DNA from: a virus
Taxonomy: Duplodnaviria > Heunggongvirae > Uroviricota > Caudoviricetes
DNA length: 40,060 bases
Strand: one strand, 5' to 3'
Virus record (IMG/VR): IMGVR_UViG_2563366805_000009
Part shown: positions 4,233-29,916 of the stretch, in pieces
How positions within the stretch are numbered: position 1 is the first letter of the stretch
Layout: each line of letters begins with the position of its first letter
Notes under the pieces: model-generated
Told to the model about the DNA's origin: nothing
Seen by the model: only the letters and a program-made list of their open reading frames with translations
The model's database searches: none
Made by a program: the position numbers and the translations under genes

Positions 4233-5086
4233 GCACCATCCTGAAATGGGCGGGAAATAAAACCGCCGTAATGTCCGAACTGAAAAAACATCTTCCTGCT
4301 GGTCCGCGACTAGTTGAACCTTTCGCGGGTTCCTGTGCTGTGATGATGGAGACGGATTATCCCTGCTATCTGGTTGCGGATATTAATCCTGATTTAATCA
4401 ACCTCTATAAAAAGGTTGCCGCTGATTGTGAATCGTTTATATCTCGCGCCAAAGTTTTATTTGAGATCGCAAACAGGGAGGTGGCTTATTACAACATAAG
4501 GCAGGAGTTTAATTACTCAACTGAAATTACTGATTTCATGAAAGCGGTATATTTCCTGTATCTCAATCGTCACGGTTACCGTGGGTTATGTCGCTATAAC
4601 AAGAGCGGGCATTTCAACATTCCCTACGGTAATTATAAAAATCCGTATTTCCCTGAAAAAGAAATTCGCGCTTTTGCAGAAAAAGCCCAGCGAGCAACGT
4701 TTATCTGCGCCAGCTTTGATGAAACGCTGGCGATGTTGAAGGCGGGGGATGTGGTGTATTGCGATCCGCCTTATGACGGTACGTTTTCCGGCTATCACGC
4801 TGACGGCTTTACTGAAGATGACCAGTATCACCTGGCATCCGTTCTTGAACATCGGTCATCAGAAGGACATCCGGTCATTGTTTCTAACAGTGACACATCC
4901 CTGATCCGTTCGCTGTATCGCAATTTTACTCACCACTATATCAAGGTAAAACGCAGCATCGGCGTAGCAGCTGGTGAGAGTAAATCAGCAACAGAAATCA
5001 TTGCTGTTTCCGGGCCGCGCTGCTGGGTGGGATTTGATTATTCGCGTGGCGTGGATAGTTCTGCCGTGTACGGAGTACGTGCATGA
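4229..5086 (+). CDS. dam: Dam-family DNA adenine-N6 methyltransferase (orphan, phage-encoded)
   Basis: N-terminal KWAGNK...EPFAGS AdoMet-binding region and catalytic DPPY motif ([10 protein letters not shown]); start chosen at internal ATG 4229, overlapping the previous stop. Confidence 0.85.
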
Positions 5087-7497
5087 GCCATGCCGATATG
5101 AGCAACTGCTGCGGCTTTAACGAGGCTGCCGCATCGTTCTCATGGAACAGCCCGAAAAAGGCCATTAACCCTTATCTGGACCCGGCGGAAGTTGCGCCGG
5201 TTTCTGCGCTTTCAAACCTGATCACTCTGTACGCTGCCGATAACGAGCAGGAACAACTGCGCCGCGAGGCACTGAGTGATCAGGTCTGGGAGCGTTATTT
5301 CTTTAATGAATCCCGTGATCCTGTCCAACGCGAAATAGAGCAGGATAAGCTCATTAGCCGGGCAAAGTTGGCGCATGAGCAGCAGCGTTTTAACCCGGAC
5401 ATGGTCATTCTGGCAGACGTCAGCGCCCAGCCCTCCCATATCAGCAAGCCGCTGATGCAACGTATTGAATACTTCAGCAGCTTGGGCAGGCCAAAGGCTT
5501 ATTCCCGCTATTTACGTGAGACGATTAAGCCATGTCTGGAACGACTGGAGCATGTACGCGACAGCCAGCTATCTGCATCTTTTCGTTTTATGGCAAGCCA
5601 TGTAGGGCTGGACGGCCTGCTGATTCTGCCTGAAATGAGTCAGGATCAGGTGAAACGCCTGTCTACCCTTGTCGCTGCGCATATGAGCATGTGCCTTGAT
5701 GCAGCTTGTGGTGATTTGTATGCCACCGATGACGTTAAGCCAGAAGAAATCCGCAAGACATGGGAAAAGGTGGCAGCGGAAACCCTGCGTCTGGATGTCA
5801 TCCCGCCTGCGTTTGAGCAACTCCGTCGGAAAAGAAACCGCCGTAAACCCGTGCCCTATGAACTCATTCCGGGTTCGCTGGCGCGTATGTTGTGCGCCGA
5901 CTGGTGGTACCGGAAATTATGGAAAATGCGTTGCGAATGGCGGGAAGAGCAGTTGCGTGCTGTCTGCCTGGTCAGCAAAAAAGCATCTCCCTATGTCAGC
6001 TATGAAGCCGTGATGCATAAACGTGAGCAGCGCCGCAAGTCACTGGAGTTTTTCCGTTCTCATGAACTGGTGAACGAAGAGGGCGACACGCTGGATATGG
6101 AAGACGTGGTAAACGCCAGCAGCAGCAACCCGGCGCACCGCCGCAATGAGATGATGGCCTGTGTTAAAGGTCTGGAGCTTATCGCGGAAATGCGCGGTGA
6201 CTGCGCCGTTTTCTACACCATTACCTGTCCGTCACGTTTCCATTCCACGCTCAATAACGGCAGACCAAACCCAACCTGGACAAATGCGACGGTAAGACAA
6301 AGCAGCGATTATCTGGTCGGCATGTTTGCTGCATTTCGTAAGGCGATGCACAAAGCCGGGTTGCGCTGGTATGGCGTGCGGGTGGCTGAGCCGCATCATG
6401 ACGGTACAGTTCACTGGCACCTGTTGTGTTTCATGCGCAAAAAAGACCGCCGCGCCATTACTGCATTGTTGCGTAAGTTTGCCATCCGTGAAGACCGCGA
6501 GGAACTGGGTAATAACACTGGTCCACGCTTTAAATCTGAGCTGATAAACCCGCGCAAAGGAACGCCGACAAGCTACATCGCGAAATACATCAGTAAGAAC
6601 ATTGACGGGCGTGGTCTGGCTGGCGAGATCAGCAAGGAAACGGGTAAATCCCTGCGTGATAACGCTGAATACGTTAATGCCTGGGCGTCTCTGCATCGTG
6701 TTCAGCAATTCCGCTTCTTTGGTATTCCGGGACGTCAGGCTTACCGTGAACTTCGCTTGCTGGCTGGTCAGGCGGCAAGGCAACAGGGTGACAAAAAAGC
6801 AGGTGCGCCGGTACTGGATAACCCGCGTCTTGATGCCATTCTGGCTGCTGCTGATGCTGGTTGTTTTGCCACCTACATCATGAAGCAGGGCGGCGTACTG
6901 GTTCCCCGCAAATATCACCTCATCAGAACCGCTTATGAAATCAACGAAGAGCCAACCGCCTATGGCGATCACGGTATTCGTATTTATGGCATCTGGTCAC
7001 CCATTGCAGAGGGCAAGATCTGCACTCATGCAGTGAAGTGGAAAATGGTTCGTAAGGCCGTTGACGTTCAGGAGGCGGCAGCCGACCAGGGCGCTTGCGC
7101 CCCTTGGACTCGTGGCAATAACTGTCCCCTTGCTGAAAATTTGAACCAACATGAGAAAGATGAATCAGCAGATGGGGATACCAGAACGGACATTACCTGC
7201 ATGGATGACAAGGAATTGCACGATTACCTGCACAGTATGAGCAAAAAAGAGCGCCGGGAACTGGCAGCAAGATTGCGCCTGGTTAAACCGAAACGGCGTA
7301 AAGACTACAAACAGCGAATTACAGAGTATCAGCGTCAGCAGCTCGTCTATGAACTGAAGTCCAGAGGATTTGATGGCAGCGAGAAAGAGGTCGATTTGCT
7401 CCTTTGCGGTGGCAGTATTCCGTCAGGAGCAGGCCTGCGTATCTTCTATCGGAACCAGCGTTTGCAGGAAGATGATAAGTGGCGGAACATGTATTAA
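5083..7497 (+). CDS. A: Replication initiation endonuclease (P2 gpA family, rolling-circle)
   Basis: 804-aa ORF; HWHLL (HxH) motif and conserved Tyr-containing regions typical of gpA-type Rep; position after dam/TraR genes. Confidence 0.85.
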
Positions 7498-7749: not shown

Positions 7750-8902
7750 AATAGCTGCGCGGAATAGTAGATCACTGAAAGGGAACTCAGCCCGGATTGT
7801 GCGATCTGATCAATCGCCAAACCAACCAAAATCACCAACCGGACTGAGCGATGCCGATCATAGTACCAATACCCCGTGGCGAACGACGCCTGATGCAGAA
7901 AGCTATTCATAAAACGCGTGATAAAAATCATGCCCGCAGACTCACGGCCATGCTGATGCTTCATCGGGGTGAACGGGTCAGCGATGTTGCCAGAACTCTC
8001 TGTTGTGCCCGTTCATCCGTTGGTCGCTGGATTAACTGGTTTACGCACTCAGGTATTGAAGGCCTGAAATCCTTACCCGCAGGGCGCTCCCGACGCTGGC
8101 CTTTTGAACATATCTGCACCCTGTTACGTGAGCTGATAAAGCATTCTCCCGGCGATTTTGGTTATCAACGTTCACGCTGGAGCACCGAATTACTGGCAAT
8201 AAAAATCAATGAGATAACCGGTTGCCAGTTACATGCAGGAACCGTTCGCCGCTGGTTGCCATCTGCGGGGCTTGTATGGCGCAGGGCCGCGCCAACTCTG
8301 CGTATCCGTGACCCACATAAAGATGAAAAGATGGCGGTAATCCACAAAGCGCTGGATGAATGCAGCGCAGAGCATCCGGTATTTTATGAAGATGAAGTGG
8401 ATATCCACCTTAATCCTAAAATCGGTGCGGACTGGCAGTTGCGCGGACAGCAGAAACGGGTAGTGACGCCGGGGCAGAACGAAAAATACTATCTGGCCGG
8501 CGCACTGCACAGTGGCACGGGTAAAGTCAGCTACGTGGGCGGCAACAGCAAAAGTTCAGCGCTGTTTATCGCTCTGCTGAAGCACCTGAAAGCCACTTAC
8601 CGGCGGGCGAAAACAATCACGCTGATCGTTGATAACTACATTATCCATAAAAGCCGCGAAACACAGCGCTGGTTGAAAGCAAATCCCAAGTTCAGGGTAA
8701 TTTACCAGCCGGTTTACTCGCCGTGGGTGAATCATGTGGAACGGCTATGGCAGGCACTTCATGACACGATAACCCGTAATCATCAGTGCCGCTCAATGTG
8801 GCAGTTACTGAAAAAGGTCCGCCATTTTATGGAAACCGCCAGCCCATTCCCCGGAGGAAAACATGGTCAGGCAAAAGTGTAGCGGTATTAGGCGCAGCTA
8901 TT
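7750..8902 (+). mobile_element. IS630-family insertion sequence (1153 bp) with TA target duplication in a CTAG target
   Basis: Terminal inverted repeats AATAGCTGCGC at 7750..7760 and 8892..8902 (reverse complement); TA at 7748..7749 and 8903..8904; flanks reconstitute C-TA-G; single 343-aa transposase ORF; length equals IS630 as recalled. Confidence 0.85.
7851..8882 (+). CDS. IS630-family (Tc1/mariner-like DDE) transposase
   Basis: 343-aa ORF with HTH N-terminus and DDE-type C-terminus (…VDNYIIHKS…), inside the TIR-bounded element. Confidence 0.9.
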   Translation: MPIIVPIPRGERRLMQKAIHKTRDKNHARRLTAMLMLHRGERVSDVARTLCCARSSVGRWINWFTHSGIEGLKSLPAGRSRRWPFEHICTLLRELIKHSPGDFGYQRSRWSTELLAIKINEITGCQLHAGTVRRWLPSAGLVWRRAAPTLRIRDPHKDEKMAVIHKALDECSAEHPVFYEDEVDIHLNPKIGADWQLRGQQKRVVTPGQNEKYYLAGALHSGTGKVSYVGGNSKSSALFIALLKHLKATYRRAKTITLIVDNYIIHKSRETQRWLKANPKFRVIYQPVYSPWVNHVERLWQALHDTITRNHQCRSMWQLLKKVRHFMETASPFPGGKHGQAKV

Positions 8903-9469: not shown

Positions 9470-10276
9470 TTATTTAGAAAGGTACTTATCTCTAAGTTGA
9501 TTCAGTCTGTCAGCATCGCGTTCTGAAAACTCGGCGTCACCATAGATCGATTTCCCATCTGCGTCTTCAAGGCCAATGACTGTGACGGTAAATATAGCAT
9601 CAGCCGGAACTTTAAGTTTTCCCCAATCAGAGTATCTATTAGGGGCTAATTTCCAGTTGGCTTTCTCACCTGGTTCCAGACCTCCAGAAATTTTATAGTT
9701 GAAGACGTCAGAGAACCAAGGGACGCTTCTTCCTGGGCTGGCAATAACTCCTTTGAAGAATACTCTGGCAACCGCTTTGTCTGTTCCGTTTTCAACGCTA
9801 ATATCCAGAATTGGCTGATCATTGCCGTAATCCTCTTTCTGGAAATAAAAACGGGAACGTTCGACCTTGAAGGCTTTCATTTTTTCCGCAGCCTGTGTTG
9901 CAGAGGTTTGTTTGGCTTCCAGTTCTTTTATTTCTTGCAGAGCCTGTTCTTTCTCTCTCTTCTCACGCTCAAGGCGAATAGTTTGTGCGTAATTTATAAC
10001 CTCATCACCAGTTTTACCTTCCAACGCTGACTTAATTTTTGTTTCGTAGACGTCCCCAGAAGACGTTCCAGCCTGCATTAGCTCTCTCATGTTGATTTGG
10101 CTAAAGGCAACGACTTTAACTGCATCATCAAACTGAGCTTTTTTATCTGCAGGTAAGGACTCTCTTACTTTTTGAATGGACTCTTTCATCGACTGATCGC
10201 TTGATGCATCGATCTTCGGTTTGTCACAAGCAGTAAGCAGCAGAGCAAAAGCAATTACGCCAGTTAATTTCTTCAT
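9470..10276 (-). CDS. Lipoprotein (268 aa), function unknown
   Basis: Start moved to internal ATG (MKKLTGVIAFALLLTAC…, lipobox LTAC); charged coiled-coil-like middle region; ORF track 9470..10348. Confidence 0.6.
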   Translation of the reverse strand: MKKLTGVIAFALLLTACDKPKIDASSDQSMKESIQKVRESLPADKKAQFDDAVKVVAFSQINMRELMQAGTSSGDVYETKIKSALEGKTGDEVINYAQTIRLEREKREKEQALQEIKELEAKQTSATQAAEKMKAFKVERSRFYFQKEDYGNDQPILDISVENGTDKAVARVFFKGVIASPGRSVPWFSDVFNYKISGGLEPGEKANWKLAPNRYSDWGKLKVPADAIFTVTVIGLEDADGKSIYGDAEFSERDADRLNQLRDKYLSK

Positions 10277-10983: not shown

Positions 10984-12090
10984 ATGACAGGTAGTGTCCC
11001 AGTAGTGCTTTCTGAGTCTGAGTTAAAGTCGATCTTGACCTTAACTGAACGTTTCACATGGAACGTTGCAAGGCCAATTATTGCGTCTTTAGGGCTGCCA
11101 ACAGGTAGGGGGCGTGAAGCAACAAACGAAAAAATACTAGAAAGCCTCATTGATCTTAAAAGTAAAGATAGGCAAAAGTTTGATGGCATTATGGCAAACG
11201 TAAATGACCTAATTTTGGGTCAGGTCGTTTATGGTGAAAAAGCAATATTTAGTTTGACTGTAGATAATAGTGTAATTAAAACACTAAATGACAGATTTAG
11301 TTTCCAATGGAATTTGATGAATCAACCATCATTATTGGTTGATTCGATCCTTGATGATGTCCAATTGCAAAATGCTGTAAAAAATCAACCTGAACTTGTT
11401 AATTATTCTATTCAAAACACCCAGTCAATACTTGTTTTTTCATCTGTCAGAGAATTAGTTGTAAGAGAAAAAATTCCCCCGTCAGCACTTGCGCAATACA
11501 AGCAGTTTGATGAAATTATTGCAAAGCGAAAAGAAAAGCGACAATGTTTTGATGTCTGTATATTAGACTCTGTTACTAATAAAATTCATGTTTTGGTAGA
11601 TACTAATGGTAATATTATTGGTGATAATGTTACTTTTGCAAAGAGTAACATTATTCGTGAATTGTATAATCATGTCGGTTATGAATTTAAATCATCGGAA
11701 AAAGATTTTTATCCGTTAATTGAGCCAATTTTCAAACAAAATTCATTGCCTTATTCAAAATTAAGCTATAAAGTCTTTGATTTGTCATTTTTGACGAATG
11801 AGGGGACTACGCATAAAGAAAAGAAAAATGTGGCCACTAAAGACTTACGTGATGATTTGTTTAATAAGGAAGGCATCAAAGCAGTAGGCAGTATTGGTTT
11901 GTATCGTATTGGAATTAGAGTTGATAGAAATAATCCAAAACTGCAATTAGCGGATAACGTAGAGCTTATCATTCCGGGAACACTCCGCAGGCATCTAGGA
12001 GGGAGTAGTTGCTCTCCTGTTAACTATGCTATATTAAGTAAATGTATATCCAAAGATGATTTCGAAACCCTCACAAAGCTGATATTATAA
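10984..12090 (+). CDS. Hypothetical protein, gene 1 of AT-rich three-gene operon (368 aa)
   Basis: ORF track 10975..12090 (GTG); ATG 10984 preferred, AGGTG RBS 6 nt upstream; no P-loop, no nucleotidyltransferase GS…DxD or RT YADD motif seen by eye; strongly AT-rich. Confidence 0.6.
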   Translation: MTGSVPVVLSESELKSILTLTERFTWNVARPIIASLGLPTGRGREATNEKILESLIDLKSKDRQKFDGIMANVNDLILGQVVYGEKAIFSLTVDNSVIKTLNDRFSFQWNLMNQPSLLVDSILDDVQLQNAVKNQPELVNYSIQNTQSILVFSSVRELVVREKIPPSALAQYKQFDEIIAKRKEKRQCFDVCILDSVTNKIHVLVDTNGNIIGDNVTFAKSNIIRELYNHVGYEFKSSEKDFYPLIEPIFKQNSLPYSKLSYKVFDLSFLTNEGTTHKEKKNVATKDLRDDLFNKEGIKAVGSIGLYRIGIRVDRNNPKLQLADNVELIIPGTLRRHLGGSSCSPVNYAILSKCISKDDFETLTKLIL

Positions 12091-12102
12091 TTGGAGTCAG
12101 CA

Positions 12103-12537
12103 ATGAAGGATGGTGATATGCCCAAGATCATCAAAGAAATGTGTGCAGAACGCCCTGAAATTGGGGCGTTAGCTTGCTATTTGTACGATGAAATCGAGGC
12201 AAGGGCTAAAAAATCATCAAATATAGCTTTAAGTTATAAGGATTTATTTAATATAGCTGGTGGTTATAATAAGGTTTTACAGCCAGAAACGTATGAGCAG
12301 GTTATCTATCCGGCCATACAAATTCTTTGTAGCCCAAAGGTTGATTTTTTAAAACTCAATTATTGGTTCATTGATGATTTTCATGACCCTGTAGAACTTG
12401 AAATAGAGGAAGTTATTGAGGCGGAAATCAGTCAATCTTTAGCAAACCCATTTACAGGGGAGCTTATGTATGACTATAAGTCATTCGTATTTCCTTTTTT
12501 TACATTAGATGAATCTAAATCAAAGGATATTATCTGA
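12103..12537 (+). CDS. Hypothetical acidic protein, gene 2 of operon (144 aa)
   Basis: ORF track 12091..12537 (TTG); ATG 12103 with GGAG 6 nt upstream; begins 12 nt after gene 1 stop. Confidence 0.55.
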   Translation: MKDGDMPKIIKEMCAERPEIGALACYLYDEIEARAKKSSNIALSYKDLFNIAGGYNKVLQPETYEQVIYPAIQILCSPKVDFLKLNYWFIDDFHDPVELEIEEVIEAEISQSLANPFTGELMYDYKSFVFPFFTLDESKSKDII

Positions 12538-13202
12538 TGTTAAAAATGTCTGCAGCAATGAGTTTGGCTGATATTGATAATGATATTTTTCTTCAGCGTA
12601 TTAATGCTTCTATTACTCGTGTTAGATTTGCACTTCAATCGTACGATAATTTCAAACAATTTGTCAGGATTGAACTTGATTCTGCTGTAAAGGAAATAGA
12701 AGAGAATTCAAATAAGTTAAACTTCGATTTAACAGAAGATCAGCTTACTTTAATTTTATTGGCCAATATCAAAAATAAAGATATGGGCATTGAAGCATTT
12801 CATGAAAATAATCAGCGCGGACATTGTGATATTACAATAAAACTAAAGGATTATATTTGGCATGGCGAAGCCAAAAAACATACATCTTCATATAGTTATT
12901 TATTTAAAGGGTATGCTCAACTCACTGAACGATATAGTACAGGGACCGTAGACAGCGCAAGTGGTGGATTGATTATCTATACTCGTAATAGAAAATGTAA
13001 TGAAATGATGAGCAACTGGAAGGCGCATTTAGATAAATTCGCACCAAGAATTCATGCCTGTAAATCTATAACGATTACTCCTTGTCAAAAAAATCCATTG
13101 GTTTTTTATAGCCAGCATGTTCACACAGTTACTCAACTGAATTATGAAGTTATTCATTACCCTGTAAATCTATATCATGAGCCTGTAGATCCGGATCTTT
13201 AA
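12537..13202 (+). CDS. Hypothetical protein with PD-(D/E)xK-like nuclease motif, gene 3 of operon (221 aa)
   Basis: Start overlaps gene 2 stop (TGATG); motif …AFHENNQRGHCDITIKLKDYIWHGEAKKH (E…D-x13-E-x-K). Confidence 0.55.
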   Translation: MLKMSAAMSLADIDNDIFLQRINASITRVRFALQSYDNFKQFVRIELDSAVKEIEENSNKLNFDLTEDQLTLILLANIKNKDMGIEAFHENNQRGHCDITIKLKDYIWHGEAKKHTSSYSYLFKGYAQLTERYSTGTVDSASGGLIIYTRNRKCNEMMSNWKAHLDKFAPRIHACKSITITPCQKNPLVFYSQHVHTVTQLNYEVIHYPVNLYHEPVDPDL

Positions 13203-23920: not shown

Positions 23921-24518
23921 TCTGCTGCCACGGGGTTCAACTTCACTGGAGCGCCGACTGGCGCAAACCTGTAGCGGGATTTCTGATCTGCAGGTGCCGC
24001 TGCGTGACTTGTGGAATCCGGCTACCTGTCCGGTCAGCTTCCTGCCTTATCTCGCCTGGGCGTTCTCTGTGGATCGCTGGGACGAGGGCTGGACAGAAAG
24101 CGTCAAACGCCAGGTAGTGAAGGATGCTTTTTATATTCATCAGCATAAAGGAACCACCAGTGCCGTGCGGCGGGTGGTGGAACCGTTCGGATTCCTGATC
24201 CGCATTATTGAGTGGTGGCAAACCGGAGAGGCTCCGGGCACGTTTCGCCTGGATATCGGCGTGCAGGACCAGGGCATCACTGAAGATACCTATCTGGAAC
24301 TTGAGCGACTGATAAGCGATGCCAAACCATGTAGCCGCCACATGATCGGCATGTCCATCAATCTGCAGACCAGCGGCCCGCATTGGGTGGGAGCCGCCAG
24401 CTATCTTGGCGAAGAAATCACGATCTATCCGTATATCAACGAAACAATTATTTCTGGCGGCACCGCGCATGAAGGCGGGGCGGTCCATGTTATTGACACA
24501 ATGAGAGTGAATCCATGA
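23913..24518 (+). CDS. I: Tail/baseplate protein I
   Basis: 201 aa, position between J and H. Confidence 0.8.
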
Positions 24519-25897
24519 GCACAAAATTTTATACCCTGCTGACGGATATTGGCGCGGCGAAACTTGTCAGCGCCGCCGCGCTCGGTGTGCCGCTAAAAAT
24601 TACCCATATGGCGGTGGGCGATGGTGGCGGAACATTGCCGACGCCGGACGCAAAGCAGAGTGCACTGGTAAATGAGAAACGTCGGGCTGCGCTGAATATG
24701 CTCTATATCGACCCACAGAACAGCAGCCAGATTATTGCTGAACAGGTGATCCCTGAAAACGAGGGCGGTTGGTGGATACGTGAAGTGGGCCTGTTTGATG
24801 AGTCAGGGGCATTGATTGCCGTGGGCAACTGCCCGGAAAGCTATAAGCCGCAACTGGCTGAAGGCAGCGGGCGTACCCAGACCGTGCGCATGGTGCTGAT
24901 TACCAGCAGCACGGACAATATCACCCTGAAAATCGACCCTGCTGTAGTGCTGGCAACCCGCAAGTATGTGGATGACAAGGCACTGGAGCTGAAGGTGTAC
25001 GCGGATGATCAGATGGCAAAACATCTTGCCGCACCGGACCCGCATTCACAGTATGCAGCCAAAGAAAGTCCTACGTTTACCGGGACACCCAAAGCGCCAA
25101 CGCCAGCGACGGGGAATAACACCACGCAGGTTGCGACCACCGCATTTGTTCAGGCGGCACTGACGGCTCTTATTAATGATGCGCCAGCCACGCTGGACAC
25201 GCTGAAAGAAATAGCCGTAGCCATTAACAATGATCCGAAATTCAGTACCACCATTAACAATGCGCTGGCACTGAAAGCGCCGCTGTCGAGTCCGGCACTC
25301 ACCGGAACGCCAACCGCACCGACTGCGGCACAGTCGGTCAACAATACACAGATTGCCACCACGGCATTTGTGAAATCGGCGATTGCGGCAATGGTGGGTT
25401 CTGCACCTGCGGCACTGGATACACTGAACGAACTGGCGGCGGCGCTGGGGAATGACCCGAACTTTGCCACGACAATGCTTAATGCACTGGCAGGTAAACA
25501 ACCGCTGGACAATACGCTGACTCATTTGAGTGGAAAGGATGTTGCTAGTCTTCTCGCATACCTTGGTTTGGGAGAAGCGGCAAAACGGAATGTGGGAACA
25601 GGGGAAAATCAGATACCTGATATGTCATCATATGCATCAGGTTCAGGCTGGCGAAAAATGCCAGATGGTTCAATTGAACAGTGGGGACGAATTAGTTTTC
25701 CTGGTGAACACGGGCCTGTATCCGCCAATGTTTCATTCCCGATTCCATTTACACAGACACCTGGCATTGTAATTGTGTGCGATGGTGGTTTCGGGGGCGG
25801 GAATATGTGGGGGGCGACCAACTGGAGCACTACCGGCTTCATAGCTCACTGCAATTATGGTCTTGAAGGTGGTGCGTTTTTCGCTAAGGGCTGGTAA
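24515..25897 (+). CDS. H: Tail fibre protein H: constant N-terminal part fused to the currently expressed variable C-terminal segment (25565..25897)
   Basis: 460 aa; conserved N-terminus [17 protein letters not shown]…; repeats …TTAFV…; crossover site lies inside the gene at 25551..25576. Confidence 0.85.
25551..25576. other. Invertase crossover site (left, inside H): TTCTCGCATACC-TT-GGTTTGGGAGAA
   Basis: 26-bp imperfect dyad with central dinucleotide, resembling hix/gix/cix/pix sites (…AAACC-NN-GGTTT…); marks the left end of the mirror symmetry. Confidence 0.55.
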
Positions 25898-26340
25898 TGA
25901 TGAAATATCTGTACGTAAACAACCTGGCATATCCTTACGAACTTCAGTCTCTTTATGTTGAAAAAGGTGAATGGCCTGAAGAAAAAGGTGTTGATATAGA
26001 CGAAGTAATTTTCAGGGAATATTTCTATGACACACCACCAGAAGGAAAATACAGATGTGTTGGAGAAGATGGACTGCCTGCATGGGCAGATATTCCTCCA
26101 CCAACACGTGAAGAACAAATTGCATCAGCCGAAACTAAAAAGCAGCAATTGATTAATCAGGCCAACGATTATATGAACAGTAGACAATGGGTTGGTAAAG
26201 CGGCTATTGGTCGTCTGAAAGGTGAGGAACTGGCGCAATATAATTTGTGGCTGGATTATCTGGACGCACTGGAGCTGGTCGATACTTCCGGTGCACCAGA
26301 TATTGAATGGCCTACGCCTCCGGCAGTTCAGGCCAGATGA
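25897..26340 (+). CDS. Tail fibre assembly protein (Tfa) for the expressed fibre tip
   Basis: 147 aa directly after H stop (ATGATGAAA overlapping); size and C-terminal conservation typical of Tfa. Confidence 0.75.
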   Translation: MMKYLYVNNLAYPYELQSLYVEKGEWPEEKGVDIDEVIFREYFYDTPPEGKYRCVGEDGLPAWADIPPPTREEQIASAETKKQQLINQANDYMNSRQWVGKAAIGRLKGEELAQYNLWLDYLDALELVDTSGAPDIEWPTPPAVQAR

Positions 26341-26914
26341 CATCCGGCGCGGTGCTGGTATCTGTTGCCGTCACCGCGTCAATGTAATCCAGCACGGCGT
26401 TAAGGCGGGTTGTTTCTGCCTGCGTCAGCTTCCGTCCGGCCTGTAATTTCAGTTGAATCAGACTGATGGAGGCCATTGCAGTATCAATCAGCGACTGGCG
26501 CTGTGCTTCTGCTGCATCTACTGCTGCGCCGTGCTGTGCCTCAGTATCGGTCACCCATTTCTCACCATCCCATTTATCGTATGGCGTTAACGGGGCGATA
26601 GTGGTTGTATTTTCAGGGTAATCACCCGGAGTTGTGATTTCTTTGGCTTCTCCCGTTTCGGTGTTATAGACGATTTCACCGCGATGGTCTGGCACATATT
26701 CCCATGAGTTAAAATCTGCAGAACGGCAGATAGCATAACCAGCCTTATATGTGCCTGGTGAATCTAAACAGGAATATGCCGGGATACCAACACCAACGGC
26801 AAGATATTCATTTGAAGTGGAAATATATTCCCGTATTTCACCATCATAGTTATAGACGGTAATATTCCCTGCCTTCGTGGCAATAATCTCGCTATTTAAT
26901 ACAGCGTTATCCAT
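26312..26914 (-). CDS. Tail fibre assembly protein (Tfa) of the alternative fibre
   Basis: 200 aa, convergent with the other tfa; follows the alternative fibre tip on the minus strand. Confidence 0.75.
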   Translation of the reverse strand: MDNAVLNSEIIATKAGNITVYNYDGEIREYISTSNEYLAVGVGIPAYSCLDSPGTYKAGYAICRSADFNSWEYVPDHRGEIVYNTETGEAKEITTPGDYPENTTTIAPLTPYDKWDGEKWVTDTEAQHGAAVDAAEAQRQSLIDTAMASISLIQLKLQAGRKLTQAETTRLNAVLDYIDAVTATDTSTAPDVIWPELPEA

Positions 26915-27393
26915 TATGCAGCCCTCACAATATAATTAAAGGCAATGTTACGTGGGCGGTTCTCATTTGCGGTTGGGACAACGGCTGAAGCATTAAAATT
27001 CGCATACAGGGAGCGTTGATACCCGGATGCTGATGCACCACTTAATGCGGGAGCTTTTGACTCCGAAGCCGAAAAGGCCCCTGACACGTATCCTAATAAC
27101 CCTTGTGAATCGCCAATTGAACTGTAGCCAACCACCCCGGTAATGTTTCGGATAGCATCTCCTTGTGCTGAAAGCAGAGTTCGCCCACTATCCACTCCCT
27201 TTCCACCATCCCAGCCACGAATAAACTCACCGCGTAAATCAGGCAATTTTAACGTCGGGTAAGCCTTTGCCAGATTAGGGTAATCTTCAGCAGAAAAAGC
27301 CGCACCGTTGCATTTCAGCCAGCCTGTTGGCGGTGTGGCTGAAGGCCATGGAACAGGCACACCAACAGGCAGCGCAGAGCCTTCCCCTAAACC
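26914..27393 (-). CDS. Alternative tail-fibre C-terminal segment (promoterless; becomes fused to H after inversion)
   Basis: In frame from the crossover core (…GLGE-GSALPVGVPVPWP…); the ORF-track N-terminal extension (MHFSQPVGG…) is antisense of the copy-2 coding sequence and is not considered real. Confidence 0.6.
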   Translation of the reverse strand, partial: GLGEGSALPVGVPVPWPSATPPTGWLKCNGAAFSAEDYPNLAKAYPTLKLPDLRGEFIRGWDGGKGVDSGRTLLSAQGDAIRNITGVVGYSSIGDSQGLLGYVSGAFSASESKAPALSGASASGYQRSLYANFNASAVVPTANENRPRNIAFNYIVRAA

Positions 27394-27407
27394 AACGTTT
27401 AAGAAAA
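27382..27407. other. Invertase crossover site (centre 1): TTCCCCTAAACC-AA-CGTTTAAGAAAA
   Basis: Outer half identical to the pin-proximal site's outer half; inverted relative to the left site. Confidence 0.5.
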
Positions 27408-27437
27408 TGCAGAGGTGTGGAAAGGATGTTGCTAGTC

Positions 27438-27463
27438 TTCTCGCATACCTTGGTTTAGGGGAA
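27438..27463. other. Invertase crossover site (centre 2): TTCTCGCATACC-TT-GGTTTAGGGGAA
   Basis: Outer half identical to the H-internal site's outer half; direct repeat of the left site, 1887 bp downstream. Confidence 0.5.
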
Positions 27464-27931
27464 GGCTCTGCGCTGCCTGTTGGTGTGCCTGTTCCATGGC
27501 CTTCAGCCACACCGCCAACAGGCTGGCTGAAATGCAACGGTGCGGCTTTTTCTGCTGAAGATTACCCTAATCTGGCAAAGGCTTACCCGACGTTAAAATT
27601 GCCTGATTTACGCGGTGAGTTTATTCGTGGCTGGGATGGTGGAAAGGGAGTGGATAGTGGGCGAACTCTGCTTTCAGCACAAGGAGATGCTATCCGAAAC
27701 ATTACCGGGGTGGTTGGCTACAGTTCAATTGGCGATTCACAAGGGTTATTAGGATACGTGTCAGGGGCCTTTTCGGCTTCGGAGTCAAAAGCTCCCGCAT
27801 TAAGTGGTGCATCAGCATCCGGGTATCAACGCTCCCTGTATGCGAATTTTAATGCTTCAGCCGTTGTCCCAACCGCAAATGAGAACCGCCCACGTAACAT
27901 TGCCTTTAATTATATTGTGAGGGCTGCATAA
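27452..27931 (+). CDS. Second copy of alternative tail-fibre C-terminal segment, preceded by a 31-bp fragment of the H constant region
   Basis: Identical protein to the 26914..27393 segment; ORF-track start 27308 is an antisense artefact. Confidence 0.55.
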   Translation, partial: GLGEGSALPVGVPVPWPSATPPTGWLKCNGAAFSAEDYPNLAKAYPTLKLPDLRGEFIRGWDGGKGVDSGRTLLSAQGDAIRNITGVVGYSSIGDSQGLLGYVSGAFSASESKAPALSGASASGYQRSLYANFNASAVVPTANENRPRNIAFNYIVRAA

Positions 27932-28533
27932 TGGATAACGCTGTATTAAATAGCGAGATTATTGCCACGAAGGCAGGGAATATTACCGTCTATAACTATG
28001 ATGGTGAAATACGGGAATATATTTCCACTTCAAATGAATATCTTGCCGTTGGTGTTGGTATCCCGGCATATTCCTGTTTAGATTCACCAGGCACATATAA
28101 GGCTGGTTATGCTATCTGCCGTTCTGCAGATTTTAACTCATGGGAATATGTGCCAGACCATCGCGGTGAAATCGTCTATAACACCGAAACGGGAGAAGCC
28201 AAAGAAATCACAACTCCGGGTGATTACCCTGAAAATACAACCACTATCGCCCCGTTAACGCCATACGATAAATGGGATGGTGAGAAATGGGTGACCGATA
28301 CTGAGGCACAGCACGGCGCAGCAGTAGATGCAGCAGAAGCACAGCGCCAGTCGCTGATTGATACTGCAATGGCCTCCATCAGTCTGATTCAACTGAAATT
28401 ACAGGCCGGACGGAAGCTGACGCAGGCAGAAACAACCCGCCTTAACGCCGTGCTGGATTACATTGACGCGGTGACGGCAACAGATACCAGCACCGCGCCG
28501 GATGTCATCTGGCCTGAACTGCCGGAGGCGTAG
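27931..28533 (+). CDS. Tail fibre assembly protein, duplicate copy
   Basis: Identical 200-aa product to 26312..26914. Confidence 0.7.
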   Translation: MDNAVLNSEIIATKAGNITVYNYDGEIREYISTSNEYLAVGVGIPAYSCLDSPGTYKAGYAICRSADFNSWEYVPDHRGEIVYNTETGEAKEITTPGDYPENTTTIAPLTPYDKWDGEKWVTDTEAQHGAAVDAAEAQRQSLIDTAMASISLIQLKLQAGRKLTQAETTRLNAVLDYIDAVTATDTSTAPDVIWPELPEA

Positions 28534-28948
28534 GCCATTCAATATCTGGTGCACCGGAAGTATCGACCAGCTCCAGTGCGTCCAGATAATCCAGCCACAA
28601 ATTATATTGCGCCAGTTCCTCACCTTTCAGACGACCAATAGCCGCTTTACCAACCCATTGTCTACTGTTCATATAATCGTTGGCCTGATTAATCAATTGC
28701 TGCTTTTTAGTTTCGGCTGATGCAATTTGTTCTTCACGTGTTGGTGGAGGAATATCTGCCCATGCAGGCAGTCCATCTTCTCCAACACATCTGTATTTTC
28801 CTTCTGGTGGTGTGTCATAGAAATATTCCCTGAAAATTACTTCGTCTATATCAACACCTTTTTCTTCAGGCCATTCACCTTTTTCAACATAAAGAGACTG
28901 AAGTTCGTAAGGATATGCCAGGTTGTTTACGTACAGATATTTCATCAT
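28505..28948 (-). CDS. Tail fibre assembly protein, duplicate copy
   Basis: Identical 147-aa product to 25897..26340. Confidence 0.7.
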   Translation of the reverse strand: MMKYLYVNNLAYPYELQSLYVEKGEWPEEKGVDIDEVIFREYFYDTPPEGKYRCVGEDGLPAWADIPPPTREEQIASAETKKQQLINQANDYMNSRQWVGKAAIGRLKGEELAQYNLWLDYLDALELVDTSGAPDIEWPTPPAVQAR

Positions 28949-29280
28949 TACCAGCCCTTAGCGAAAAACGCACCACCTTCAAGACCATAATTGCAGTGAG
29001 CTATGAAGCCGGTAGTGCTCCAGTTGGTCGCCCCCCACATATTCCCGCCCCCGAAACCACCATCGCACACAATTACAATGCCAGGTGTCTGTGTAAATGG
29101 AATCGGGAATGAAACATTGGCGGATACAGGCCCGTGTTCACCAGGAAAACTAATTCGTCCCCACTGTTCAATTGAACCATCTGGCATTTTTCGCCAGCCT
29201 GAACCTGATGCATATGATGACATATCAGGTATCTGATTTTCCCCTGTTCCCACATTCCGTTTTGCCGCTTCTCCCAAACC
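28948..29280 (-). CDS. Second copy of the H variable C-terminal segment (promoterless, inverted)
   Basis: Identical to H residues [11 protein letters not shown]…AKGW; in frame to the crossover core at 29281..29282. Confidence 0.55.
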
Positions 29281-29294
29281 AACGTTTAAGAAAA
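29269..29294. other. Invertase crossover site (right, pin-proximal): TTCTCCCAAACC-AA-CGTTTAAGAAAA
   Basis: Inverted relative to the left site; lies about 55 bp upstream of the invertase gene, as gix/cix/pix sites do. Confidence 0.55.
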
Positions 29295-29349
29295 TGCAGA
29301 GGTAACAGCTAACTGGCATCATCTCCGGTTTTTATTCAGGGGGATGATC

Positions 29350-29916
29350 ATGCTTATTGGCTATGTACGCGTGTCAACAAATGACCAGAACACCGATTTG
29401 CAACGTAATGCACTGAACTGCGCGGGATGTGAGCGGATTTTTGAGGACAAAATCAGTGGCACTAAGTCCGACAGACCGGGGCTGAAAAAACTACTCAGGA
29501 CACTATCGGCAGGAGACACGCTGGTTGTCTGGAAGCTGGACAGGTTGGGGCGCAGTATGCGGCATCTTGTTACGCTGATAGAAGAGTTGCGCCAGCGTGG
29601 TGTGAATTTCAGAAGCCTGACTGACAGTATTGATACCAGTACCCCAATGGGCCGTTTCTTTTTTCATGTCATGGGTGCCCTGGCTGAAATGGAACGCGAA
29701 CTGATAGTTGAACGTACCAGGGCAGGGCTGGCTGCAGCTCGTGCCAAAGGCAGAGTAGGTGGACGCCGTCCTAAGTTGACCACCGAACAGTGGGCACAGA
29801 TTGGGCGTTTACTCGAGGCCGGAGAATCAAGACAGCGTATTGCACTGATTTTTGATGTAGGCGTTTCTACCATTTATAGAAAATTTCCGGCAAATAAGAT
29901 CAATGAATCCCCCTGA
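29350..29916 (+). CDS. pin: Serine-recombinase DNA invertase (Hin/Gin/Cin/Pin family)
   Basis: N-terminus MLIGYVRVSTNDQNTDLQRNAL with catalytic Ser; …VVWKLDRLGRSM… and C-terminal HTH; near-identical to the recalled e14 Pin / P1 Cin N-terminus. Start at second ATG (AGGGGG RBS). Confidence 0.9.
   Translation: MLIGYVRVSTNDQNTDLQRNALNCAGCERIFEDKISGTKSDRPGLKKLLRTLSAGDTLVVWKLDRLGRSMRHLVTLIEELRQRGVNFRSLTDSIDTSTPMGRFFFHVMGALAEMERELIVERTRAGLAAARAKGRVGGRRPKLTTEQWAQIGRLLEAGESRQRIALIFDVGVSTIYRKFPANKINESP

Follow-up and report, generated by a model that had tools for sequence, protein, structure and literature searches.

Gin, Cin and Pin belong to the 'Din' family of serine invertases, which switch the C termini of tail fibers. 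The tail-fiber cassette of the P2-like prophage of Escherichia coli KTE100 is like Gin with the G segment of Mu, Cin with the C segment of P1 and Pin with the P segment of e14 in that its invertase matches Gin over the full length, its crossover sites are 26 bp long with a 2-bp core, and the segment leaves out the constant part of H but contains two alternative tips, each with its tfa chaperone. It differs from them in that the unit is, as written, tandemly doubled with a junction that is not a crossover site; to our knowledge, no Gin, Cin or Pin member with a tandemly doubled unit has been described. Each single KTE100 unit is nevertheless a textbook member of the Gin/Pin/Cin group: the enzyme is a small serine recombinase whose catalytic domain (Ser near position 9-10) is N-terminal and whose HTH is C-terminal, and alternative 3' tips of H, each with its cognate chaperone, occupy a segment that excludes the constant 5' part. 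The cassettes of E. coli P2-like prophages such as EC958 Phi2 have the same gene order as KTE100 and closely similar crossover sites (...ACCTT GGTTTAGGAGAA and ...AACGTT GGTTTGGGGGAA in EC958 Phi2; PMC4134206), but they are single, whereas that of KTE100 is doubled as written. Forde et al. (2014) reported that both tail-fiber orientations coexist in cultures and that the alternative one was seen as separate spurious contigs, and they warned of 'artefactual duplications in phage regions' and against merging such contigs into the chromosome (PMC4134206).

The window, that is, the whole 40,060-nucleotide stretch of DNA that was analyzed, lies on scaffold KE137155.1 of KTE100 (2013 draft assembly, GCA_000408565.1), and the features of its cassette are collected in Table 1. 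Exactly four 26-bp sites fitting the 12+2+12 Gin/Pin-type pattern were present in the window, where chance would give none; s1/s2 and s3/s4 are inverted pairs. The outer half-sites are fixed with the flanks, TTCTCGCATACC on the H side and TTTTCTTAAACG on the invertase side, while the inner half-sites move with the segment, the pattern expected from exchange at the central TT, which in all four sites is the exchange point between isomers. The first ~349 aa of H, as far as the crossover at 25563/25564, are constant, and the remaining ~111 aa are tip A. Pfam assigns Phage_tail_fib to residues 1-150 and Gp53-like_C to residues 381-448. The invertase gene is intact, and residues 1-184 of its product match the Gin structures 3uj3 and 4m6f (E = 1e-92).

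Table 1. Coordinates of the doubled tail-fiber cassette and its neighbors in the window
Feature	Position	Strand	Description
H, present fusion	24515-25897	+	Tail-fiber gene, 460-aa ORF; EOW09399.1 of E. coli KTE100
Unit A	25530-27416		1887 bp
Crossover site s1	25551-25576	+	TTCTCGCATACC TT GGTTTGGGAGAA; outer half H-side, inner half tip A
tfaA copy 1	25897-26340	+	147 aa, tail-fiber assembly chaperone of tip A; Pfam Caudo_TAP, E = 1.5e-32
tfaB copy 1	26312-26914	-	200 aa; Pfam Caudo_TAP, E = 1.4e-32
Silent tip B copy 1	26914-27393	-	Faces the junction; same as 27452-27931 read on the opposite strand; copy-2 ORF has a Collar domain
Crossover site s2	27382-27407	-	TTTTCTTAAACG TT GGTTTAGGGGAA on the minus strand
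Junction-made ORF	27407-27931	+	174 aa; RefSeq WP_024191338.1; Pfam Collar
Nonpalindromic center	27408-27437		30 bp; 9 bp of invertase-side flank (TGCAGAGGT) against 21 bp of H-side flank (GTGGAAAGGATGTTGCTAGTC)
Unit B	27417-29303		1887 bp
Crossover site s3	27438-27463	+	Outer half H-side, inner half tip B; direct repeat of s1
tfaB copy 2	27931-28533	+	
tfaA copy 2	28505-28948	-	
Silent tip A copy 2	28948-29322	-	124-aa ORF starting in the invertase-side flank; Pfam Gp53-like_C; WP_097481011.1 of MS 115-1
Crossover site s4	29269-29294	-	Direct repeat of s2
Serine DNA invertase	29350-29916	+	188 aa, N terminus MLIGYVRVSTNDQ...; Pfam Resolvase and HTH_7

A script comparison of the two units showed that their outer flanks are identical (25530-25564 equals 27417-27451, and 27394-27416 equals 29281-29303) and that their 1829-bp interiors, bounded by the central dinucleotides (25565-27393 and 27452-29280), are reverse complements without a single mismatch. 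A repeat search returned an inverted repeat with arms of 1857 nt (25551-27407 and 27438-29294, 99% complementary) around a spacer of 30 nt, together with direct repeats at 1887-bp spacing of 48 bp (25530-25577/27417-27464) and 36 bp (27381-27416/29268-29303). The doubled structure is present in the sequence as written, far beyond chance. The number of tips stays at two despite the doubling, the copies being identical over the 1829 bp. Both orientations of the segment were found, B in MS 115-1 and its relatives and A in copy 1 of KTE100 and in one ENA metagenome contig. The initial annotation had described a 1887-bp unit occurring twice in tandem in opposite inversion states, a near-perfect palindrome of ~3.7 kb, four crossover sites with 25551/27438 and 27382/29269 as direct repeats, and two tips and two tfa genes per unit upstream of a Gin/Pin-type invertase; the flank and interior comparisons, the agreement of the pattern and repeat searches, and the Pfam and Gin structure matches bear out this anatomy. 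Its flank lengths needed minor correction: the invertase-side flank extends 9 bp outside the site (22 bp from the crossover center), and the H-side flank extends 21 bp outside the site (34 bp from the crossover center) and not 31.

The sole new adjacency is the junction 27416/27417 (GCAGAGGT/GTGGAAAGG). The natural continuations at the breakpoint are GCAGAGGT/AACAGC and CATTTGA/GTGGAAAGG, so that the junction is blunt and without microhomology; it is also gapless, with no N across the whole window, and, measured from the closest isomer-specific base, the duplicated flanks are 40 and 28 nt long. The ORF that spans it takes its ATG from the invertase-side flank, continues through 7 H codons and then enters tip B. 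BLAST searches found the junction in 0 of 5,426 complete E. coli genomes and in no phage or plasmid record. An exact junction pattern gave 0 matches, a pattern allowing any 10 to 40 bp between the two outer half-sites gave 0 matches in the viral, genome and metagenome collections, a generic pattern of two head-to-head sites gave 0 matches in species-representative genomes and viral contigs, and the junction-spanning ORF was confined to GCA_000408565.1 among 153 billion gene positions.

We rejected three simple origins of this junction, and a fourth leaves part of it unexplained. A fold-back or hairpin chimera does not fit, since the 30-bp center lacks palindromic symmetry and the flanks on the outside, one from H and the other from the invertase gene, are not reverse complements. 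Serine recombinases require a shared 2-bp core, and action of the invertase on a secondary site is contradicted by the retention of both GT dinucleotides and by natural partners that share no breakpoint bases. The unit ends are not a homology or module boundary in common with other prophages, because homology with Mu-like copies of the cassette stops at the sites (25551/25563 to 27400) and not at 25530/27416. A plain k-mer bubble written twice does not account for the two flank lengths, which fit no single k.

When unit A was removed from the KTE100 sequence, the remainder matched the single-cassette prophage of E. coli MS 115-1 at 9,814/9,814 bp. The same prophage is present in four more complete genomes at 99.9 to 100% identity, and there the span is 3,813 to 3,833 bp against 5,701 bp in the window, which indicates one cassette in each of the four. 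In the comparison with single-copy relatives, proposed in the initial annotation as a check, the doubled structure is missing from five near-identical prophages of complete genomes, all single-cassette, and isomers A and B stand in series here. The identical invertase protein occurred in 9,140 collection blocks, and 10 of the 10 diverse contexts checked held one cassette. Furthermore, tfaB occurred in 210 collection blocks, and in 77 of these every tfaB contig was at most 2 kb, suggesting that assembly from short reads usually fails to place this segment. The KTE100 prophage also has an ISEc33 insertion among further private changes, and such changes mark it as an independent lineage.

On balance, we lean toward the reading that the doubled cassette is an assembly artifact of a mixed-orientation culture and not a new four-site switch. 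The locus would be an ordinary single-copy cassette, running from the constant part of H through a site, tip A with tfaA, the opposed tfaB and tip B, and a second site to the invertase, and the KTE100 culture would have held both orientation isomers; coexisting orientations are usual for such invertible cassettes. The 2013 draft assembly would then have put both isomers in series, by an assembler step that we infer to have made the junction, in the order prefix, isomer A (unit A), isomer B (unit B), suffix. The doubled cassette, its four sites, the 3.7-kb palindrome and the 174-aa ORF would in that case be products of assembly and not chromosomal features.

Removal of one allele restores the sequence of the relatives, as this explanation predicts, and the junction was found in no other sequence, its ORF being known from one assembly. 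Serial alleles predict one copy in each orientation, whereas a real duplication would give that arrangement in only about one case out of two. The sequence comes from a draft scaffold, short-read assemblies seem usually unable to place the segment, and one cassette accompanies the identical invertase in each of the ten diverse contexts. Long palindromes are destabilized in E. coli by SbcCD and by palindrome-stimulated deletion, and one with these arms, this spacer and these direct repeats should be unstable in a wild-type strain. Moreover, endpoints that lie 21 and 9 bp beyond the sites are very unlikely to result from random duplication, and their hugging of the sites suggests a cause linked to the invertible segment. 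The spurious contigs that arose from mixed tail-fiber orientations in EC958 provide a precedent (Forde et al. 2014; PMC4134206). On the other side, a k-mer-graph assembler should not join sequences without shared bases unless reads contain the junction, the join is gapless, the duplicated flanks are incompatible with one k value, and no assembler step that yields the junction was identified. We found no description of the KTE100 assembly method in the literature, and the ALLPATHS-LG paper contains no passage that bears on it; KTE100 was probably assembled with ALLPATHS-LG from Illumina data. The initial annotation had left the choice between real duplication and artifact open, and the restriction of the structure to one draft assembly, its absence from the five near-identical prophages and from all collections searched, and the serial order of the two isomers together shift it toward artifact without settling it.

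A real, private and recent tandem duplication of 1887 bp, followed by inversion of one copy between its own sites, is possible but rather doubtful. Its route might tentatively be drawn as illegitimate blunt recombination of sister chromosomes, from 9 bp past s2 to 21 bp before s1. One could speculate that synapsed sites drew the two flanks together and so kept the endpoints tight; we know of no mechanism that ties such duplication endpoints to crossover sites, and endpoints so close to both sites are improbable if random. The clean, gapless junction within a 5.18-Mb scaffold argues for a real event, as graph assemblers normally need reads for such joins and no k-mer size accounts for the flank lengths. 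The segment is inverted precisely at the central dinucleotide, as in a true invertase event, the Gin-like invertase gene is intact, and ISEc33 and the other private changes mean that KTE100 is a lineage of its own. Against this, a second example was absent from every collection searched, the junction has zero microhomology, and a near-perfect 3.7-kb palindrome between direct repeats should collapse fast in E. coli. No new tip was gained, and hence no selection for the doubled state is evident.

It is unlikely that the junction existed in the sequenced DNA outside the main chromosomal structure and was promoted into the scaffold by the assembler. The minor DNA could have been a subpopulation with a transient duplication or amplification, a 1887-bp circle, or an amplified chimeric library molecule, formed for example by blunt circularization in a mate-pair library. 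A blunt, microhomology-free junction is typical of in vitro ligation, circle and tandem junctions are indistinguishable in short reads, and such a source would reconcile a junction that needs reads with its absence from relatives. Random chimeras, however, should not fall within ~20 bp of both sites, and we know of no process that creates ends at 25530 and 27416. A four-site inversion system that has evolved and is maintained, a small shufflon enlarging the set of tail fibers, is highly improbable: four intact sites do adjoin one invertase in the sequence as written and clusters of more than two sites exist (nine sites in pSA186_4, an EPEC P2-like prophage with three inverted repeats, and Min of p15B), but the identity of the copies, which leaves the tips at two, together with the absence of the structure from all near-identical prophages and from all 5,426 complete E. 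coli genomes, effectively refutes it, and the geometry is unlike that of natural clusters, where every added site carries another tip.

If the structure is an artifact, invertible phage segments of mixed cultures can enter draft genomes twice, and the error spreads, the junction ORF being already a RefSeq protein (Table 1). If it is true, it would represent the first step of a two-site Gin/Pin switch growing into a Min-like cluster, before the copies diverge or tips are replaced from other phages, and also a natural 3.7-kb E. coli palindrome whose symmetry is toggled by an invertase, on which the stability of palindromes could be studied in an unusual setting. The gain would be modest even then, since inversion systems with more than two sites have been described before and no new receptor-binding tip is present.

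These larger systems are the remaining points of comparison. Gin-family enzymes strongly disfavor directly repeated sites, and Min of plasmid p15B has six sites. Min has been cited as an inversion cluster of more than two sites (PMC5903667), and the P2-like prophage of EPEC E2348/69 has three inverted repeats (PMC4272514), so that the initial annotation overstated one segment with two sites as the norm. In pSA186_4, a cluster of nine sites is served by one invertase, and eight of the sites are directly repeated and persist without deletion; its silent tips are eight distinct cassettes of ~0.45 kb, all in the same orientation. That persistence, together with the bias of the Gin family against direct sites, weakens the earlier suggestion that the invertase could delete one KTE100 copy. 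As written, KTE100 would resemble Min, EPEC and pSA186_4 in having more than two sites per Gin-family invertase, with direct sites coexisting, but each extra site of the natural clusters brings a new tip, whereas the extra sites of KTE100 come with an exact copy and stand head to head 30 bp apart. The R64 shufflon likewise offers alternative C termini of a surface protein, picked there by multiple inversions, but its recombinase, Rci, is a tyrosine recombinase acting on pilus adhesin genes and is not homologous. Finally, KTE100 shares with the long palindromes and tandem-inversion duplications of E. coli, which are SbcCD substrates, an inverted duplication that is almost perfect and has a short spacer. 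It differs from them in that its central flanks are direct and not folded back, and in that site-specific inversion, and not snap-back synthesis, accounts for the inverted copy.

We examined the doubled tail-fibre cassette with a repeat search of the window, a script comparison of its units and a pattern match for crossover sites, and these confirmed the structure described in the initial annotation, namely, two tandem invertible units in opposite orientations with four crossover sites. The repeat search returned an inverted repeat with arms of 1857 nt (99% complementary, 30 nt between them) and two short direct repeats at a spacing of 1887 bp. By script, the two copies are 1887-bp units with identical outer flanks, and their interiors, delimited by the central dinucleotides of the flanking sites, are 1829 bp long and exact reverse complements (0 mismatches). 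The site pattern matched 4 times, compared with 0 matches expected by chance. The outer half-sites are fixed to the flanks and the inner ones move with the segment, indicating that one copy is a precise inversion product at the central TT. The sole novel adjacency is at 27416/27417 (GCAGAGGT|GTGGAAAGG), where 9 bp of invertase-side flank abut 21 bp of H-side flank with 0 shared bases; this join is gapless, and there is no N anywhere in the window.

Features of the doubled cassette and of the prophage accessory region (window positions)
Feature	Position	Strand	Description
Replication endonuclease gene	5083-7497
ISEc33	7750-8902		IS630 family, 1153 bp
ISEc33 transposase	7851-8882		343 aa
Three-gene block	10984-13202	+	368, 139 and 221 aa
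Copy 1 (unit A, isomer A)	25530-27416
Inverted repeat, arm 1	25551-27407
s1 crossover site	25551	+	26 bp, fits 12+2+12 Gin/Pin pattern
s2 crossover site	27382	-	26 bp, fits 12+2+12 Gin/Pin pattern
Junction ORF	27407-27931		174 aa; start in invertase-side flank; RefSeq/UniRef 'phage tail protein' WP_024191338.1
Copy 2 (isomer B)	27417-29303
Inverted repeat, arm 2	27438-29294
s3 crossover site	27438	+	26 bp, fits 12+2+12 Gin/Pin pattern
s4 crossover site	29269	-	26 bp, fits 12+2+12 Gin/Pin pattern

The tail-fibre gene H, whose constant part lies outside the segment, encodes 460 aa as fused, with Phage_tail_fib at the N-terminus and the Gp53-like tip A. The segment also carries the assembly chaperone genes tfaA (147 aa) and tfaB (200 aa), both Caudo_TAP, and the alternative tip B with a Collar domain; a 188-aa protein encoded downstream of the segment matches Gin invertase structures over residues 1-184 (E = 1e-92). 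Taken singly, each unit is a textbook example of the Gin/Pin/Cin family of tail-fibre switches.

Comparison with related prophages, a check proposed in the initial annotation, showed a single cassette in near-identical prophages (99.9 to 100%) of five complete E. coli genomes (MS 115-1, 2021CK-01361, ECONIH4, CAVP776 and C 236-04A), the matching span being 3,813 to 3,833 bp in each versus 5,701 bp in the window. With unit A removed, the window was identical to MS 115-1 at 9,814 of 9,814 positions. The near-identical complete genomes are all in orientation B (H-tip B fusion), so orientation A (H-tip A fusion) appears to be the rarer state. Among the matches listed, the only carrier of the H-tip A fusion other than KTE100, the E. 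coli strain whose draft contains the window, was a metagenome contig (L004, ENA ERZ27237850 k111_7014), the end of which falls within the segment, close to where tfaA and tfaB overlap.

Besides the doubled cassette and a few SNPs, the only difference from the MS 115-1 prophage is an ISEc33 copy, absent from MS 115-1 and inserted in the accessory region directly downstream of the replication endonuclease gene. A three-gene block, annotated as hypothetical in MS 115-1, is also located in the accessory region, with the replication genes on one side and the portal gene on the other; this block gave no Pfam matches above curated cut-offs and no PADLOC matches at all, and it could be a moron or anti-phage cargo of unassigned type. 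The prophage of the window is P2-like and adjoins ybjL. At this site, other E. coli (loci L016, L018 and L024) have remnant prophages with the invertase deleted, in which the terminase gene borders directly on an incomplete gpI, H (509 aa), tfaB and a truncated copy of tfaA; the fibre in these remnants is frozen in orientation B.

A 120-bp junction query had spanning matches in 0 of 5,426 complete E. coli genomes and was spanned in 0 phage records and 0 plasmid records. The outer half-sites with any 10 to 40 bp between them gave 0 matches in IMG/VR, 100,044 species-representative genomes and JGI metagenomes, and a generic head-to-head pair of Gin-type sites gave 0 matches in representative genomes and viral contigs. 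The ORF created by the junction occurred in one assembly only among 153 billion gene positions. The identical invertase protein was present in 9,140 collection blocks, with a single cassette in all ten diverse contexts listed, and tfaB was present in 210, twice at one locus only in KTE100. All tfaB-carrying contigs were 2 kb or shorter in 77 of the 210 blocks, which suggests that short-read assemblies usually fail to place this segment. The H-tip A protein of the window is EOW09399.1 of KTE100, and the DNA belongs to scaffold KE137155.1 (5.18 Mb) of assembly GCA_000408565.1; we take the KTE series to be Illumina drafts of 2013 made with the ALLPATHS-LG assembler.

Our leaning, held with modest confidence, is that the doubled cassette is an assembly artefact and not a real feature. 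The interpretation in the initial annotation, which allowed for either a real duplication or an artefact, is thereby supported in part, the artefact now being the favoured explanation. In a culture of mixed orientation, both alleles would have been incorporated in series by the assembly, and the order in the window (prefix, isomer A, isomer B, suffix) is the expected result of such incorporation. Cultures with mixed orientation are well documented (PMC4272514), and in EC958, alternative tail-fibre orientations appeared as spurious contigs (Forde et al., PMC4134206), whose authors caution against artefactual duplications in phage regions. One copy per orientation, identical copies, endpoints hugging the sites and uniqueness to a single draft fit an artefact better than a real event. 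Since the junction ORF is present in RefSeq and UniRef, a probable assembly artefact is now in the protein databases.

Two observations count against an artefact and favour a real duplication that happened recently, with one inversion after it: a graph assembler should not join sequences bluntly and without a gap unless reads support it, and the duplicated flank lengths match no single k. Moreover, the artefact reading, though we lean towards it, names no assembler step for making the junction. A real duplication therefore stays a serious rival, to which we give a substantial minority of our credence. However, endpoints that hug the crossover sites would be very unlikely if duplication were random, and the structure is confined to a single draft assembly. 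In addition, a palindrome with 1.86-kb arms, a 30-bp spacer and flanking direct repeats of 48 and 36 bp should be an SbcCD target and collapse readily. Less likely still, and in our view improbable, is that the junction arose in a minority of the population or in vitro. Three other origins were rejected, namely, a fold-back chimera, use of a secondary site by the invertase and a module boundary shared with other prophages.

If the doubled cassette were real, the state as written would express H-tip A and tfaA, with the truncated tip B and tfaB of copy 2 downstream in the sense direction. Inversion of copy 1 would yield H-tip B, inversion of the whole 3.7 kb would yield H-tip A again, and no new specificity would arise. 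Deletion of one copy by the invertase, which the initial annotation had considered possible, would be disfavoured, because recombination between directly repeated sites is disfavoured in the Gin family; consistent with this, pSA186_4 keeps eight directly repeated sites beside one invertase.

The locus in pSA186_4 (L027, NZ_CP022733.1, 4108-9042) is a natural inversion cluster in which the expressed fibre gene has one site and the eight opposite-orientation sites are spaced at ~0.45-kb intervals and interspersed with seven annotated silent tip genes; many phage-plasmids of ~95 kb have 4 to 12 such places. Related cassette sequences were found at L022 and L023 (CP056865.1) and L026 (p1493-4). 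Two Mu-like prophages have a near-identical cassette (tfaB plus a 147-aa tfa), with 99.7 to 99.9% DNA identity from site to site, next to different invertases, and P1-like phage-plasmids also contain the beginnings of tip B-like sequences together with the site. Phage families exchange these cassettes, and the homology stops at the crossover sites. Inversion systems with more than two sites include Min of p15B (cited in PMC5903667), a P2-like prophage in EPEC with three repeats and four variants (PMC4272514) and the nine-site cluster in pSA186_4. Since such systems are already known, the doubled cassette, even if real, would only extend a known kind.
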